Source of the DNA: Escherichia coli
GTDB taxonomy: Bacteria > Pseudomonadota > Gammaproteobacteria > Enterobacterales > Enterobacteriaceae
Assembly: GCF_003019035.1 (NCBI RefSeq)
Contig: NZ_CP027447.1
Strand: one strand, 5' to 3'
DNA: 64,000 nt
Shown: piece after piece, positions 53,725 through 64,000 of the stretch
Layout of the letters: each line of letters starts with the position of its first letter
Position numbering within the stretch: position 1 is the first letter of the stretch
Program-made: the position numbers and the translations under genes
Notes under the pieces: generated by a model
The model's database searches: none
What the model was told of the DNA's origin: nothing
Seen by the model: the letters and a program-made list of their open reading frames with translations, nothing else

Positions 53725-53913
53725 TACAAAGCTTTTTTTAAGTCTACTAACGTCTACTTTAGTCCATAAAAACAGTAAGTTAAGCGAGTTTCTGACTTGG
53801 CTTAGTCTGTTAACGTCTACTCAATTCCTTGAACATATACCAACCGATGATGGTATAACTGATGGTATTCCCGGTTCGATTGATTTTGATACCAACACAG
53901 GAGGTATCAACTG

Positions 53914-55161
53914 ATGGCTCTCACGGATATCAAAGTTAGGACTACCAAGCCCTCTGACAAACCCTTCAAACTTACTGATGGGCAGGGTATGCACCTCCTG
54001 GTCAACCCCAATGGTTCAAAATACTGGCGACTCCAATACCGTTTCGATGGCAAACAAAAAGTTTTAGCATTGGGTGTTTATCCAATGGTCTCTCTTGGTG
54101 AAGCTCGCAGGAAACGAGATGAGGCCAAAAAGTTGGTATCTGATGGTATCGACCCTTCCGAGAAGAAAAAAGCAGACAAGATCGAGCAGAGCGAAGCCCT
54201 GACATTCGAAGCTGTTGCAAGGGACTGGCATACTGCCTGTAAAAGGAAATGGTCAGATTCCCATAGTGAAAGGGTTTTAAAGAGCCTTGAAGACAACCTT
54301 TTCTCTTCCATAGGACAGAGAAAAATAGCCGAGCTTAAAACTAAGGATCTTCTCGAACCAGTCAAAACTGTTGCGGCTTCTGGACGACTAGAAGTAGCTG
54401 CTCGTCTGCAACAACGAACCACAGCAATCATGCGATATGCCGTCCAGAATGGCTTAATTGACTACAATCCAGCACAAGATATGTCTGGGGCAATTACAGT
54501 TGCGAAACGAACCCACAGACCAGCCTTACCATTTGATAGGTTCTCAGAGCTTTTAGAGCGCATTGAAAGCTTTAAAGGTAGGAAACTTACTAAATTAGTT
54601 GTGAAGCTGACATTGCTCATTTTTATCCGTTCCAGTGAACTCCGATTCGCAAGATGGTCGGAGATCGACTTTGAAAATGCGATGTGGACTATCCCTGGAG
54701 AACGCGAGCCATTACCAGGAGTCAAACATTCCCATCGAGGCTCAAAAATGAAGACCCCACACCTCGTGCCGTTAAGTCGTCAGGCCTTAGAACTTCTAAA
54801 AGTCATCAGAGAAATCAGCGGTGAATGCGACCTTGTATTCATTGGCGATCATGATTTCAGAAAACCTATGAGCGAAAACACAGTCAACAAGGCACTAAGG
54901 TCAATGGGTTATGACACAACCGTTGAGGTATGTGGGCATGGTTTTAGAGCAATGGCTTGTAGTGCTTTGATCGAGTCAGGAAAGTGGTCGAGAGATGCTG
55001 TTGAACGGCAGATGAGCCATCAGGAGCGGAACTCCGTTCGTGCCGCATACATTCATAAAGCTGAGCATTTGGACGAGCGTAGGTTGATGTTGCAGTGGTG
55101 GGCTGATTATCTTGATGAAACAACTAAGAGAAGAATTGCACCTTTCGATTTTAATAACTAA
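53914..55161 (+). CDS. int: P4-type tyrosine integrase (IntB-like)
   Basis: N-terminus MALTDIKVRTTKPSDKPFKLTDGQGMHLLVNPNGSKYWRLQYRFDGK typical of P4-family integrases; AGGAGG RBS; tRNA-adjacent. Confidence 0.9.
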   Translation: MALTDIKVRTTKPSDKPFKLTDGQGMHLLVNPNGSKYWRLQYRFDGKQKVLALGVYPMVSLGEARRKRDEAKKLVSDGIDPSEKKKADKIEQSEALTFEAVARDWHTACKRKWSDSHSERVLKSLEDNLFSSIGQRKIAELKTKDLLEPVKTVAASGRLEVAARLQQRTTAIMRYAVQNGLIDYNPAQDMSGAITVAKRTHRPALPFDRFSELLERIESFKGRKLTKLVVKLTLLIFIRSSELRFARWSEIDFENAMWTIPGEREPLPGVKHSHRGSKMKTPHLVPLSRQALELLKVIREISGECDLVFIGDHDFRKPMSENTVNKALRSMGYDTTVEVCGHGFRAMACSALIESGKWSRDAVERQMSHQERNSVRAAYIHKAEHLDERRLMLQWWADYLDETTKRRIAPFDFNN

Positions 55162-55179
55162 CTGATTTTTATAAGTAAA

Positions 55180-55218
55180 ATGGCGTATTCAATAACCAAT
55201 TGAGACGCCATTTTTTTA
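55180..55218 (+). terminator. Rho-independent terminator after int
   Basis: ATGGCGT...ACGCCAT hairpin followed by TTTTTTTATTT. Confidence 0.6.
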
Positions 55219-55230
55219 TTTGCGATTTAT

Positions 55231-62054: not shown

Positions 62055-62084
62055 CTCAATGAAGCAGCGTAGCGCTTCGTTGAG
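62055..62084. promoter_or_regulatory. Candidate oriT inverted repeat upstream of mobC
   Basis: CTCAATGAAGC-(8 nt)-GCTTCGTTGAG imperfect 11-bp inverted repeat in the AT-rich region between mobC and the divergent gene. Confidence 0.4.
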
Positions 62085-62160
62085 TTAGCCCTTGCTTTAA
62101 CAATATTGACCAAAATCTCTTTTTAATATAAAATGAATCCTAAGAGGGATGGAGGTATAC

Positions 62161-62724
62161 ATGCTCAATGATAATAAAATTCGCACTGCATTAATAAATT
62201 TTTTACTGGCTAAAAAACCAGCGCCAGAAAGGATTATTGAAGAATTGCATATCGAGAACGGAAGAGCAATAGCTGATGTCGTAGCAGCATATAGTTATTT
62301 GCATTGCTACGAGATTAAAGGAGAGACTGATTCAATTGGAAGAATCCTTACTCAAGCTAATTATTATAATACTTCTTTCAACAAAATTACACTTGTAACT
62401 ACAAAAAATCATTTAACATGGGCATTAAAGCGTTCCCCATCCTTCTGGGGAATCATATTAGTAGAATTAAAAGATAATAACATTACTTTCAAATATATAA
62501 GGGGGGCTAAAGATAATATTTTCTTCAGAAAAGAAAATGCTTTCATGATGTTATGGAAGGACGAAATGTTGAAGGTAGCAAATGAAGCCTCTGTACCAGT
62601 TAAAAGATCACACACGAGGATGGAAATAGCCGAAATGCTTAGTAGTTCGCTTAAGAAAAGTGATGCTTTGCAAACTATACAAAGCATCATATCTAATCGA
62701 CTAAAATTAAGGGATGCAGTGTAA
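62161..62724 (+). CDS. Hypothetical protein (187 aa), possible partner of the Beta-protein-like gene
   Basis: ATG at 62161 with GGAGG 5 nt upstream (track ORF starts at 62149); 3' end overlaps the convergent gene by 18 bp. Confidence 0.55.
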   Translation: MLNDNKIRTALINFLLAKKPAPERIIEELHIENGRAIADVVAAYSYLHCYEIKGETDSIGRILTQANYYNTSFNKITLVTTKNHLTWALKRSPSFWGIILVELKDNNITFKYIRGAKDNIFFRKENAFMMLWKDEMLKVANEASVPVKRSHTRMEIAEMLSSSLKKSDALQTIQSIISNRLKLRDAV

Positions 62725-63795
62725 AACAAACTTAATATGTGAAGTCAGCATGGCTTTAATCCAGGATGAGGGATTACCTGCTTTATCTGGTTTTTTAGGC
62801 GAATAACTACTTCTATCATAAACATATTGTTCCCCATATGAGAATGTAGTTGCCCTGAAGAATTTTTGGTCATGGATTATTGTGGCAATATCATAATATT
62901 GACCATTTCCTCTCTCATCATTCTGGAAAGATCCACCTCTAACACAAAACATATTATTCTTATACGTATAAAATACTTTTGGTGCGGAAACTTTTCTAAA
63001 TAGCTTCGGATCTAAATCTATATCAGAATAATCAGGGCTAACAATTCCATAATCCCCGTATATAATATTACCAATTTTCTTTTCGTTAACTAATGTGTCC
63101 CAAATTTTCCACTCCGCTCTCGTGAACGATTTTCTTTGATAGGTTTCAAGTAATGAGGAAATATTAGCCGGTATCGAAGAGGCTGATATAATGCACTTAT
63201 CAAAGTGAAAGTCTTTATTTACATTTAGAATAAAGTATTCAGCCATGTCAGTTAGTCGCTTTATGTCAGTTGGCTGAATGTATCGTAGATCTATAATTAA
63301 GTGCAATTGTTCTACTTTCAGATTTCTAATGATTACCATCATCTTCAAGAGATGCATTTTTGTTATTTTATAGCTCTCAATATCTTCAGCAACTAACCTT
63401 ATGGCTAATTTCCCTCCGTTAATTGATAGGCTATCGTAAACACTTTTATTGTGTTTCTCTAATCGGTTGATACCGATCACAGGAATATATAAGTAATCAC
63501 GAAAAAGAGATAGTATATATTCGTATTGCTCCACTCCATCAATTAATATTTCATCATCCAGGTCATAATTATCTATGTAAAATTCCATGTTTTTAAATAA
63601 AGCTTTATTATCCAATCTCTTTTTGAAAGAATGAGCTTTATTCAATACATTTTCCATTGTTTGATTATTTGATTCTCTTGGTATATCGAAGAATGGAGTG
63701 ATTTGTGTGAAGATTGTAGCATCTTTTTTGTAAAGCTCTTCGAGGGCTTGAGTTTCGTTGCTTTTTGCTTTTAAAAATGGGATATATTTACTCAT
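62707..63795 (-). CDS. Beta-protein-like (sce7725-like) protein, about 362 aa
   Basis: N-terminus MSKYIPFLKAKSNETQALEEL resembles the conserved N-terminus of the Beta_protein family as I recall it; start ATG at 63795 overlaps the stop of the upstream ORF. Confidence 0.5.
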   Translation of the reverse strand: MSKYIPFLKAKSNETQALEELYKKDATIFTQITPFFDIPRESNNQTMENVLNKAHSFKKRLDNKALFKNMEFYIDNYDLDDEILIDGVEQYEYILSLFRDYLYIPVIGINRLEKHNKSVYDSLSINGGKLAIRLVAEDIESYKITKMHLLKMMVIIRNLKVEQLHLIIDLRYIQPTDIKRLTDMAEYFILNVNKDFHFDKCIISASSIPANISSLLETYQRKSFTRAEWKIWDTLVNEKKIGNIIYGDYGIVSPDYSDIDLDPKLFRKVSAPKVFYTYKNNMFCVRGGSFQNDERGNGQYYDIATIIHDQKFFRATTFSYGEQYVYDRSSYSPKKPDKAGNPSSWIKAMLTSHIKFVLHCIP

Positions 63796-64000
63796 TGAAA
63801 CCAAGCTCCCTTCTGACATCAATTGAATTAACTAAACTTGAGAAGATAACATAATTTTTGTGTTTATTTCTTACCGCACCAGCAGCGATTATTGGGTGTA
63901 TATTAAATCTTTCGCAGACAGATATTAGACTATCAGGTTCATTAAATGTCCGAAAGACAGCTCTATTTGCTTCTCTGGGTATCAGACTATCAGCTGCGGC
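63788..64000 (-). CDS. Hypothetical protein, C-terminal 70 aa only (5' end beyond window)
   Basis: Open frame from the window edge ending ...VNSIDVRRELGFNE-stop; its TAA overlaps the downstream ATG (AATGAGTAA), suggesting translational coupling. Confidence 0.4.
   Translation of the reverse strand, partial: AAADSLIPREANRAVFRTFNEPDSLISVCERFNIHPIIAAGAVRNKHKNYVIFSSLVNSIDVRRELGFNE

Follow-up and report, generated by a model that had tools for sequence, protein, structure and literature searches.

The window analysed here (64,000 nt of Escherichia coli, GCF_003019035.1, contig NZ_CP027447.1) carries at leuX one intact element that unites a P4-type integrase with a replication and transfer module of the small-plasmid kind and with a cassette of the anti-phage type. 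Its features make it quite probable that this is a relaxase-bearing integrative mobilizable element (IME) of about 11.8 kb, inserted site-specifically in the 3' end of leuX, which would excise, replicate as a circle, be mobilized by a helper and re-integrate. The element belongs to a kind that is already known and is not a new one; the literature search revealed no description of an element at leuX that combines these genes.

The original prediction placed the start of the element at position 53725, which is exact, since tRNA-Leu(CAA) ends at 53724. The DNA 3' of the tRNA is AT-rich, as had been claimed, with a GC content of 0.356 for 53725-64000, far below that of the core genome, as compared to 0.511 for 1-53639; 1-kb windows gave mean values of 0.356 (sd 0.050) and 0.511 (sd 0.047), respectively (Mann-Whitney p = 2e-6). 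A search of the 64-kb window for a further copy of the leuX 3' end, with up to 3 mismatches per 25 nt allowed, found none. In 12 related copies the tRNA 3' end marks one boundary, and its imperfect direct repeat marks the other about 11.8 kb away, which confirms integration at leuX. The downstream repeat (attR) was located in assemblies L013 and L014, both 100% identical to the window, from which the right end was taken. It lies about 1.5 kb past the window end (about 65505-65527 if the numbering of the window is continued), and the length of the element is therefore about 11.8 kb, in agreement with the predicted size of more than 10.3 kb and with a second attachment site outside the window. 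The content also differs, as anticipated, from that of K-12, where the site holds an intB pseudogene, IS2 and IS4. The int, alpA, Rep-like and relaxase genes of the original prediction are borne out by the profile matches collected in Table 1.

Table 1. Coordinates and supporting evidence of the features at leuX, in order along the window
Feature	Position	Strand	Evidence or remark
leuX, tRNA-Leu(CAA)	53640..53724	+	ARAGORN, sole tRNA found; Rfam tRNA 59 bits
attL core (leuX 3' end)	53700-53724	+	core repeat also at far end in 12 related copies
Candidate integrase arm-type sites, TGATGGTAT x2, 12-bp spacing	53848, 53860		sequence repeat; putative function
Candidate arm-type site, inverted TGTTGGTAT	53889-53897		putative function
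int, P4-family tyrosine integrase, 415 aa	53914..55161	+	NCBIfam PRK09692 E 5e-73
DUF6387 protein, 289 aa	55273..56142	+	Pfam DUF6387 on record; PGAP name identical in L001
alpA, AlpA/Vis-like excisionase and regulator, 67 aa	56263..56466	+	phrog_66, phrog_2790, E 4e-11
HTH protein, 84 aa, part of replicon, overlaps rep end	56914..57168	-	weak HTH matches
rep, ColE2-superfamily replication initiator / primase-type Rep, 282 aa	57165..58013	-	Pfam Replicase PF03090 E 5e-30
Candidate ori block, TTGTCAAGTGT...AAGCCATATCAGATATTAGGTGTTT	58110..58155	+	core 58125-58139; putative function
orf137	58562..58975	+	intact, pN/pS 0.10
orf223, hydrophobic C-terminal half, downstream of relaxase	59293..59964	-	intact in all full copies
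MobA/VirD2-type relaxase, 422 aa	60250..61518	-	Pfam Relaxase PF03432 E 2e-24
MobC-like relaxosome accessory protein, 145 aa, overlaps relaxase start	61487..61924	-	pairwise homology
Candidate oriT	62022..62100		TTTTTTCAAC..GGCGAAAAAA, then imperfect inverted repeat, ends in GTTAGCCCTTGC
cII-like / sce7726-family protein, 187 aa	62161..62724	+	NCBIfam sce7726_fam E 9e-44, above cut-off
Beta-family protein, PD-lambda-2 component C type, 362 aa	62707..63795	-	PADLOC PD-Lambda-2_C E 4e-47
ImmA/IrrE (M78) peptidase, 3' end only in window	63788..64000	-	gene runs past window end

The sequence comparisons show an integration module that is specifically P4-type. Full-length alignment of the integrase with P4 Int gives 58% identity (E 3e-179), and an identical int gene is on record with the Pfam domains Arm-DNA-bind_3, Phage_int_M and Phage_integrase. 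The small alpA product shares 41% identity with P4 ORF88/Vis (E 5e-14); the PHROG families that it matches are labelled 'excisionase and transcriptional regulator', and Pfam Phage_AlpA is on record for this gene in a 100%-identical contig. Furthermore, the P4 attP core includes the leuX 3' end sequence (comparison with NC_001609). The candidate arm-type pair recurs with the same 12-bp spacing just inside attR, both in L001 (30839, 30851) and in the window's own lineage, and the annotated attP arm repeats of P4 are tandem 12-bp units too. The DUF6387 gene, a constant partner of int and alpA, matches phrog_23422, a PHROG family with function unknown.

The replication module resembles that of small autonomous plasmids, as evident from the 70% identity of Rep to that of pKAM621_5, a 4.9-kb Citrobacter plasmid, and its 61% identity to the Reps of three other autonomous 4-kb plasmids; a weak PriCT_1 match accompanies PF03090. 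The small HTH gene after rep is also present in related autonomous plasmids, where its counterparts are annotated 'plasmid replication protein' or 'HTH domain-containing', and in the pKAM621_5 subgroup it follows rep as it does here. Of the 15 positions of the ori-like core, 14 agree with the ColE2 ori core AAGCCTTATCAGATA, a string that was checked on 84 plasmids, and the two have CC(A/T)TATCAGATA in common. The exact core pattern occurs once in the 64-kb window, with a degenerate second copy at 58409-58423, and the block is kept upstream of rep in the same position and orientation in four autonomous plasmids. These likenesses uphold the description of the element as plasmid-like. However, the ColE2 ori lies immediately 3' of rep, while the core of the pKAM621_5 subgroup lies about 110-140 bp upstream and is inverted; given this placement, the block could instead be a regulatory site. 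The leuX replicon also differs from ColE2-type plasmids in that it sits inside an integrating element.

The relaxase is 37% identical to that of an IncQ2 plasmid typed MOBP and displays an N-terminal Tyr (IVLYTL) and an HDD...HIH motif; its NCBIfam matches to TraI_MobP (E 8e-17) and MobB (E 3.5e-20) are both under the curated cut-offs. The predicted MobC is supported by pairwise homology, being 38% identical (E 4e-18) to the annotated MobC of the IncQ2/MOBP plasmid pK433-qnrS and 50% identical to the protein that accompanies the most similar relaxase on a plasmid, but not by family models, as no MobC match was obtained in Pfam or NCBIfam. The arms of the candidate oriT (62041-62065 and 62074-62098) form an outer CAAGGG/CCCTTG stem and an inner AACTC.../...GAGTT stem, and the canonical IncP nick motif ATCCTG is absent from it. 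In 21 of 32 Enterobacterales loci and in 2 plasmids, a region built in the same way precedes the relaxase operon, the relaxases being 37-67% identical to that of the element. Across Enterobacterales the inner stems vary yet remain complementary through compensatory changes, with a mean of 9.7 paired positions as compared to 5.0 (sd 0.4) after shuffling, and none of 300 shuffles reached the observed value. Orphan oriT-like remnants with no relaxase also occur in many E. coli genomes. No T4SS, coupling protein or further transfer gene was found among the 13 genes (Pfam, NCBIfam and annotation), a gene content that agrees with the element being mobilizable, as was first proposed.

Cargo had been predicted as well, and it is present, but it is not unknown as then described; it is largely identifiable from its sequence matches as a putative defence cassette related to PD-lambda-2 and P4 gop-beta-cII, with cII-like, beta, M78 and GNAT genes. 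The cII-like protein (191 aa if the alternative start at 62149 is used) matches Pfam Phage_P4_cII and PADLOC 'cll' (E 1e-22), a model which P4 cII itself matches at 3e-113, and is 25% identical to P4 cII (E 6e-13). The beta-family gene (Pfam Beta_protein PF14350; phrog_9159 E 3e-53) is convergent and overlapping with it, as in P4; its product neither matched the P4 'beta' model nor resembled P4 beta in BLASTP. Peptidase_M78 is the sole Pfam record of the peptidase, and the full gene in L001 matches PADLOC PD-Lambda-2_B (E 2e-47) at profile positions 175-396 of 402 only. Past the window lie the remainder of this gene, a GNAT gene (Pfam Acetyltransf_10 E 6e-5) and attR. No match was obtained for orf137 in Pfam, NCBIfam, PHROGs or PADLOC, or for orf223 in any profile library searched.

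There is experimental precedent for defence by PD-lambda-2 (Vassallo et al. 2022, PMC9519451) and by gop-beta-cII (Rousset et al. 2022, PMC9122126), with which the cassette shares the beta-family, M78 and cII-like proteins and the operon-like layout with a convergent cII gene. It differs from PD-lambda-2 in lacking the HigB-like A component and the N-terminal Xre-HTH half of the B component, from gop-beta-cII in lacking Gop, and from both in having a GNAT acetyltransferase gene at the first position. As the PD-lambda-2 A component and gop are missing, the defence function is an extrapolation, and anti-phage activity of the cassette may be proposed by analogy.

The content of the element is present not in most E. 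coli but in 3 of 5,426 complete genomes. Klebsiella aerogenes FDAARGOS_139 carries a copy that aligns at 98.97% identity over an ungapped 10,401 nt and forms the same 11.8-kb unit, at the same tRNA and with the same ends, in unrelated chromosomal flanks. Such a near-identical copy in another genus indicates that the element moved recently. As compared to the S19-651 copy, identity is 93-95% in the int module and 99-100% in the mobilization genes and cargo, and this mosaic indicates module exchange. All 11 compared genes are intact, and pN/pS values of 0.07 for int (comparison with the S19-651 copy), 0.05 for DUF6387 and 0.15 for rep place the genes under purifying selection. The element can nevertheless decay, as evident from the IS-disrupted copies L016 and L019, in which int is truncated, rep lost and the relaxase cut. 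These truncated copies, together with the orphan oriT-like remnants, would fit an immobile, decaying island remnant at leuX that is inherited only vertically and whose rep and mob genes are fossils. This explanation is nonetheless improbable, as the genes in the window are all intact and strongly constrained, both the ori-like block and the oriT hairpin are conserved, presence is sporadic, and the E. coli and K. aerogenes units share their ends in unrelated surroundings.

It is slightly less probable still that the element is primarily a small plasmid with an extrachromosomal lifestyle, of which the integrated copy is an exception. Genuine 4-5-kb plasmids have Rep, the 84-aa HTH gene and an ori-like block in common with the element, and the relaxase and MobC-like protein resemble those of small mobilizable plasmids. 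However, none of 72,556 plasmid records carries the element, at most about 20% of the rep-mob region being covered, at low identity. Every contig examined that encodes an identical Rep or MobC-like protein is chromosomal, at tRNA-Leu, and the oriT type occupies 639 chromosomal and 0 plasmid places in E. coli.

The element could also be read as a P4-like phage satellite or PICI, spread by hijacking helper phage capsids and not by conjugation. With P4 (NC_001609) it shares attachment at the leuX 3' end, the integrase type, the Vis/AlpA homologue and the convergent layout of cII-like and beta-family genes, and its Rep is of a primase family. This reading is nonetheless very unlikely, as BLASTP revealed no counterpart of the P4 genes alpha, sid, psu, delta, epsilon or cI, gop is lacking too, no PHROG packaging or capsid match was obtained, and Rep is a 282-aa plasmid-type initiator and not a primase-helicase. 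The element has instead a relaxase, a MobC-like gene and a hairpin of the oriT type.

Several other known elements resemble the leuX element in part. EARL or ROD21-like islands insert at tRNA-Asn. Like the leuX element, they are tRNA-inserted Enterobacterales islands with an integrase, an AlpA-type RDF, an adjacent DUF6387 and a relaxase; they are excisable, recombine modularly with each other, and carry TraD, a MOBQ-family relaxase and pilus-related genes, with no Rep reported (PMC10763509). DUF6387 adjoins AlpA in ICEKp258.2 and other EARL islands as well, but in ICEKp258.2 the two are the last of 28 genes, whereas in the leuX element they lie directly beside int (PMC10763509). A recent classification divides such elements into relaxase-bearing IMEs ('iMOB') and oriT-only islands ('iOriT') and does not describe the leuX element itself (bioRxiv 10.64898/2026.01.13.699239). 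Points of agreement with these classes are an integrase and a relaxase without a mating-pore system, an oriT family specific to chromosomes and not plasmids, and defence genes adjoining oriT.

Helper-induced excision, replication and conjugative mobilisation have been shown experimentally for PIMEs (bioRxiv 10.64898/2026.01.12.698999). The leuX element resembles these in its modular int, alpA, replicase and mobilisation genes, its large defence-type cargo and its copies across genera. It differs in size (about 11.8 kb, while the PIME of E. coli RHB23-C07, described first in that work, has about 22 kb; bioRxiv 10.64898/2026.01.12.698999), in its ColE2-type Rep and P4-type int/vis at leuX, and in an oriT hairpin without the IncP nick motif; the PIME hallmark genes trbJ and trbL, and also traJ and a luxR-type regulator, were not found in it.

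In the proposed life cycle, the P4-family integrase and the AlpA/Vis-like excisionase would recombine the attL and attR cores, 23-25-nt repeats of the tRNA 3' end flanked by the paired arm-type 9-mers, to release an excised circle, which the ColE2-superfamily Rep would replicate from the ori-like block that precedes rep. Nicking of the hairpin oriT, in the intergenic region between mobC and the cII-like gene, would then be the work of the relaxase with its MobC-like partner. As the element encodes neither a coupling protein nor a T4SS, the DNA would leave via the pore supplied by a conjugative plasmid or ICE in the same cell, the presumed helper, and the element would re-integrate at leuX in the recipient. 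By analogy, the leuX element may work like PIME or SGI1-type elements, which excise, replicate and hitch a ride. The four-gene cassette, adjoining oriT on the side opposite the relaxase, may act as a toxin-antitoxin-like abortive infection system and would benefit the host by blocking phages.

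The only tRNA gene in the window is leuX, and the AT-rich DNA on its 3' side begins at 53725, exact to the base with the original prediction. The GC content of 53725-64000 is 0.356 as compared to 0.511 in the preceding 53.6 kb, and 1-kb windows of the element and the upstream part differ in GC (Mann-Whitney p = 2e-6); the composition is far below that of the core genome, a match to which had been named as grounds for rejecting an insertion. No second leuX 3' end was detected in the window with up to 3 mismatches allowed in 25 nt. The right end was located in two draft assemblies, L013 and L014, which match the window at 100% identity across all 10,401 element bases and 6.5 kb of core flank, and hence represent the window's own lineage. 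In these assemblies, the peptidase gene is followed by a GNAT gene (210 aa) and then by attR, an imperfect repeat of the leuX 3' end (gttcgagtccggcatccgcacca). The position of attR gives an element of ~11.8 kb with ~1.5 kb outside the window, in keeping with the expectation that the second attachment site lies outside it and that the element exceeds ~10.3 kb. In 12 copies, among them E. coli S19-651 (L001), the related copy used as reference, and the window's own lineage, ~11.8 kb separates the attL and attR repeats. The 9-mer TG(A/T)TGGTAT is paired with 12-bp spacing just inside both element ends, and the annotated arm repeats of P4 attP are likewise tandem 12-bp units; the paired 9-mers are interpreted as putative arm-type sites of the integrase. 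Beyond attR, the window's lineage carries a 678-aa ORF without family (L013:1-1798; full length in another locus, L021:3670-5706).

Features of the leuX element and its candidate cis-acting sites
Feature	Coordinates	Description
tRNA-Leu(CAA), leuX	53640-53724	+ strand (ARAGORN)
9-mer pair (candidate arm-type sites)	53848 and 53860	attR-side counterpart in L001 and L013
Tyrosine integrase, 415 aa		P4-family; PRK09692 E 5e-73; 58% identity to P4 Int, full length
DUF6387 protein		between integrase and AlpA-type gene
AlpA-type excisionase/regulator, 67 aa		PHROG E 4e-11; Pfam Phage_AlpA; 41% identity to P4 Vis
Ori-like core	58125-58139	AAGCCATATCAGATA
Rep, 282 aa		strand opposite to int/alpA; Pfam Replicase (PF03090) E 5e-30; weak PriCT_1 match
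HTH protein, 84 aa		strand opposite to int/alpA
Relaxase, 422 aa		MobA/VirD2-type; Pfam PF03432 E 2e-24; ORF intact
MobC-like partner, 145 aa		end overlaps relaxase start by 32 nt
Candidate oriT inverted repeat	62041-62065 / 62074-62098	25 nt, imperfect; between MobC-like and cII-like genes
cII-like (sce7726) gene		convergent with beta-family gene
M78 (ImmA/IrrE) peptidase gene		3' end in window, rest beyond window edge
attR	~65505-65527	window-equivalent, from L013/L014

Family or PHROG/Pfam matches bear out each of the int, alpA, Rep-like and relaxase genes that had been read from the sequence, and the att repeats, a Rep of the ColE2 superfamily and the relaxase together uphold the interpretation of an integrated, mobilizable, plasmid-like element. 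Two ORFs of 137 and 223 aa (orf137 and orf223) gave no match in Pfam, NCBIfam, PHROGs or PADLOC; a search of both together with the 678-aa ORF beyond attR against the same collections returned nothing but one marginal PADLOC match (E 0.0012).

The Rep protein displays 70% identity to its counterpart on pKAM621_5, a Citrobacter plasmid of 4.9 kb, and 61% to those on three 4-kb plasmids (E. coli, Klebsiella and Enterobacter), and the same small HTH gene follows rep in all four of these autonomous plasmids. The replicon of the element belongs to a subgroup of the ColE2-superfamily small plasmids. The search for an origin was based on what is taken to be the ColE2 origin sequence. No paper giving this sequence was found by literature search; in a BLAST search against plasmids, 84 small plasmids proved to have the assumed 41-mer, at 100% identity and immediately 3' of rep. 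The ori-like core of the element matches the ColE2 core at 14 of 15 positions, and the exact core pattern occurs once in the 64-kb window. The core does not lie immediately 3' of rep, as in ColE2-type replicons, but 112 bp upstream of it and inverted. All four autonomous plasmids of the Rep subgroup, and both chromosomal copies examined, keep the block GTCAAGT...CCATATCAGATA, which contains the core, on the strand opposite to rep and 110-140 bp upstream of that gene. This block is the best candidate for the origin; because its position differs from that in ColE2, the assignment remains putative. A degenerate second core (AAGCCATAGGAGATA, 2 mismatches) is found at 58409-58423, 284 bp from the first and in the same orientation. 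A promoter reading of the block is less likely, as the 20-nt spacer from TTGTCA to GATATT is too long. A promoter/terminator scan did not rise above background (50 promoter-like sites against 41, sd 5.5, in shuffles), and an Rfam scan of 53400-64000 returned tRNA only, the sub-threshold SNORA63, Corona_pk3 and bxd_5 matches being attributable to chance.

The transfer module consists of the relaxase, its small partner and a candidate oriT. The partner had been called MobC, and this holds as far as its position and its 38% identity (E 4e-18) to the annotated MobC of the IncQ2 plasmid pK433-qnrS, a MOBP plasmid by MOB-suite typing; the MobC family models do not recognise it, as neither a Pfam MobC match nor any NCBIfam match was obtained. 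The candidate oriT hairpin has an outer stem CAAGGG/CCCTTG and an inner stem AACTC.../...GAGTT, between the invariant flanks TTCAACCGAAGGGCGAAAAA ... GTTAGCCCTTGC. This arrangement recurs at the corresponding position in a different leuX island, with a relaxase of only 52% identity, in a Pseudomonas plasmid and in an IncQ2 plasmid, and also in 21 of 32 chromosomal loci with relaxases 42-67% identical (from Pectobacterium, Brenneria, Klebsiella, Enterobacter, Citrobacter, Pantoea, Erwinia and others). The inner stems vary in sequence and length with complementarity kept, as evident from a structure-anchored count of 9.7 paired positions on average versus 5.0 (sd 0.4) in the shuffle control, the observed pairing being reached by none of 300 shuffles. 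Such compensatory changes support a candidate functional hairpin of the oriT type. RNAalifold was applied to a MAFFT alignment of 15 of the hairpins in which length differences had shifted the left arm out of register; it returned a meaningless structure of 4 pairs and was set aside.

Of 5,426 complete E. coli genomes, 611 (~11%) contain the 131-bp oriT-like region, with 639 matches in total, all chromosomal and none on plasmids. The one lower-identity match whose context was read, in E. coli EC19 (L004:14001-14078), is an orphan: the degraded ssrA (tmRNA) island around it has no relaxase. It is possibly a hitcher of the oriT-only 'iOriT' type, or else a fossil. A species-wide relaxase scan recovered no near-identical relaxase among the species representatives, the relatives being only 42-67% identical. 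No T4SS or T4CP domain was found among the 13 genes of the element, orf137 and orf223 being without any match; transfer would therefore have to depend on a helper, and helper-dependent conjugative transfer is proposed.

The cargo had been described as unknown, but can largely be identified as a four-gene cassette, whose genes are related to the defence systems PD-lambda-2 and gop-beta-cII. The former is a validated three-gene toxin-antitoxin-like abortive-infection system (PMC9519451); the latter confers protection from lambda and P1 (PMC9122126), its trigger being an accessory gene of the phage (bioRxiv 10.1101/2023.04.06.535777). In PADLOC, the beta-family protein matches PD-Lambda-2_C over near full length (E 4e-47), and the peptidase matches PD-Lambda-2_B (E 2e-47) at profile positions 175-396 of 402, which is the C-terminal half only. 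Component B of PD-lambda-2 is an Xre-HTH fused to a peptidase, and here Pfam lists Peptidase_M78 only and no HTH. The HigB-like component A is absent from the cassette, and its first position is occupied by the GNAT gene, which shows a Pfam Acetyltransf_10 match (E 6e-5, measured on the S19-651 copy) and no PADLOC match at E <= 1. The cII-like protein matches the PADLOC model 'cll' (E 1e-22, 167 of 265 profile positions), Pfam Phage_P4_cII, and NCBIfam sce7726 above its cut-off. No cassette protein matches the 'gop' model or P4 Gop; the beta protein belongs to the Pfam family of P4 beta (PF14350), yet gives no PADLOC 'beta' match and no BLASTP similarity to P4 beta. As positive controls, P4 Gop, beta and cII match 'gop', 'beta' and 'cll', respectively.

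On these profile matches the cassette appears to be a hybrid or variant of the two systems, and a modestly novel one. In strain XJW9B277, the same four genes occupy the attR-proximal end of another island with a different relaxase-bearing make-up, and the cassette therefore travels as a unit. It adjoins the candidate oriT on the side opposite the relaxase, and this placement of defence genes is reported to be typical of integrative elements (bioRxiv 10.64898/2026.01.13.699239).

The element is rare in E. coli. Its region (at least 80% covered, ~96.5% identity) is present in only 3 of the 5,426 complete genomes, so that its gene content is not that of leuX in most strains, and the int-DUF6387-alpA module is present in 24. 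Nor is it the KpLE2 remnant of K-12, as had been foreseen: K-12 carries an intB pseudogene, IS2, yjgX, yjgZ and IS4 downstream of leuX, none of which is in the window. No PLSDB plasmid record holds the element; in the assembly collection the exact MobC-like protein occurs in 2,959 index blocks and the exact Rep in 127. Identity to the S19-651 copy is mosaic (int module 93-95%, rep 97-98%, mobilisation and cargo 99-100%), with all indels in non-coding DNA and all 11 genes compared intact; pN/pS values are 0.07 for int, 0.05 for the DUF6387 gene and 0.15 for rep. All full copies read are at tRNA-Leu(CAA), except that in L021 (CP057166.1), where a partial tRNA 3' end (TAGGTTCGAGTCC..., L021:18207-18233) precedes the element and ARAGORN detects no tRNA; this copy is presumably the second in a tandem array, or lies beside a disrupted leuX. 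In two further assemblies (L016, GCA_037006005.1; L019, GCA_051906155.1), an IS (DDE_Tnp_1) has removed rep, orf137, orf223, alpA and the DUF6387 gene, and the relaxase and integrase are truncated with the defence cassette kept.

The copy in CP014748, Enterobacter (now Klebsiella) aerogenes FDAARGOS_139 (PMC5501881), aligns with the window at 98.97% identity over 10,401 nt, gap-free and at the same tRNA. Its flanks, ~87% identical to K. pneumoniae, show no match to the E. coli core. A near-identical copy in non-E. coli flanks constitutes strong indirect evidence for a recent inter-genus transfer between Escherichia and Klebsiella.

Other arrangements were seen at leuX. In S19-651 (L001:30911-48407), attR directly adjoins a second P4-type integrase gene (72% identity to the first), beyond which lies a large defence island with Ser/Thr kinase, HerA helicase, type I R-M and McrBC; the locus is a tandem array. 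The commoner leuX islands, represented by E. coli TUM11353 (L003:18251-22399) and ~20 similar genomes, possess the int-DUF6387-alpA module at 95% identity, and in place of rep two extra tyrosine recombinases and a DNA-binding protein, followed by a relaxase 52% identical to that of the window and a different cargo (sensor kinase, N6 methylase). The integration module is reused with different payloads. On the left flank, within 52500-53600, the core gene ahr beside leuX is unusually divergent, with 92.6% identity to S19-651 at 53001-53500 and 99-100% a few kb upstream, which fits recombination hitch-hiking around an insertion hotspot. Low GC also occurs in the 'core' part of the window (0.34-0.37 at 33001-35000 and 0.40 at 37-38 kb), and 36801-38192, in the yjgM/yjgN region, does not align with S19-651, suggesting a divergent allele or a small replacement.

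The element is an intact, relaxase-bearing integrative mobilizable element (IME) at leuX, sharing with this class a site-specific recombinase, direct-repeat att sites, its own relaxase and no T4SS or coupling genes; readings as a phage satellite, a defective ICE or a plain integrated plasmid were considered and rejected. It resembles P4 satellites in its leuX site, its integrase (58%) and Vis (41%) identities and part of its cargo, but lacks the alpha primase-helicase, sid, psu, delta and epsilon (BLASTP, none at E < 0.01). Rep is of the family common to ColE2-type replicons, whose ori is placed differently, and the gene content of the K-12 leuX island (KpLE2 / PR-Y) is not shared. Helper-induced excision, replication and mobilisation have been demonstrated for Pseudomonadota integrative mobilizable elements (PIMEs), a family that trbJ and trbL serve to define and that has an IncP-like oriT with a conserved nic site (bioRxiv 10.64898/2026.01.12.698999). 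The present element likewise combines int, alpA and a replicase, but trbJ and trbL are absent, orf137 and orf223 matching no Pfam, NCBIfam or PHROG family, and the sequence after its hairpin (GTTAGCCCTTGC) has no ATCCTG motif of the IncP-type nic. In function, PIMEs and SGI1-type IMEs are the closest models. No paper describing this element was found in the literature searched.

A fuller scenario, doubtful when all its parts are taken jointly, is that the element descends from a P4 satellite, whose chassis it keeps (P4-type int, Vis, attP architecture and cII/beta defence hotspot), that a ColE2-type plasmid replicon and a MOB module have replaced the genes for phage hijacking and alpha replication, the helper changing from phage capsid to conjugation pore, and that the GNAT/M78-peptidase/beta/cII-like cassette is a four-gene variant bridging PD-lambda-2 and gop-beta-cII with the acetyltransferase as toxic effector.

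No concept is changed by these observations, since such IMEs and oriT-adjacent defence cargo have already been described. In compact and fully intact form, the element illustrates the way in which defence genes travel, joining in one 11.8-kb unit a phage-satellite-type integration module, a small-plasmid replicon and a mobilisation module, with two well-supported candidate cis elements, the ori-like block and the oriT hairpin. It may serve as a small, tractable model for whether IMEs need replication after excision, for which conjugative helpers serve a chromosome-specific oriT family with often orphan copies, and for the mechanism of the PD-lambda-2 / gop-beta-cII family with a GNAT acetyltransferase replacing the usual toxin.
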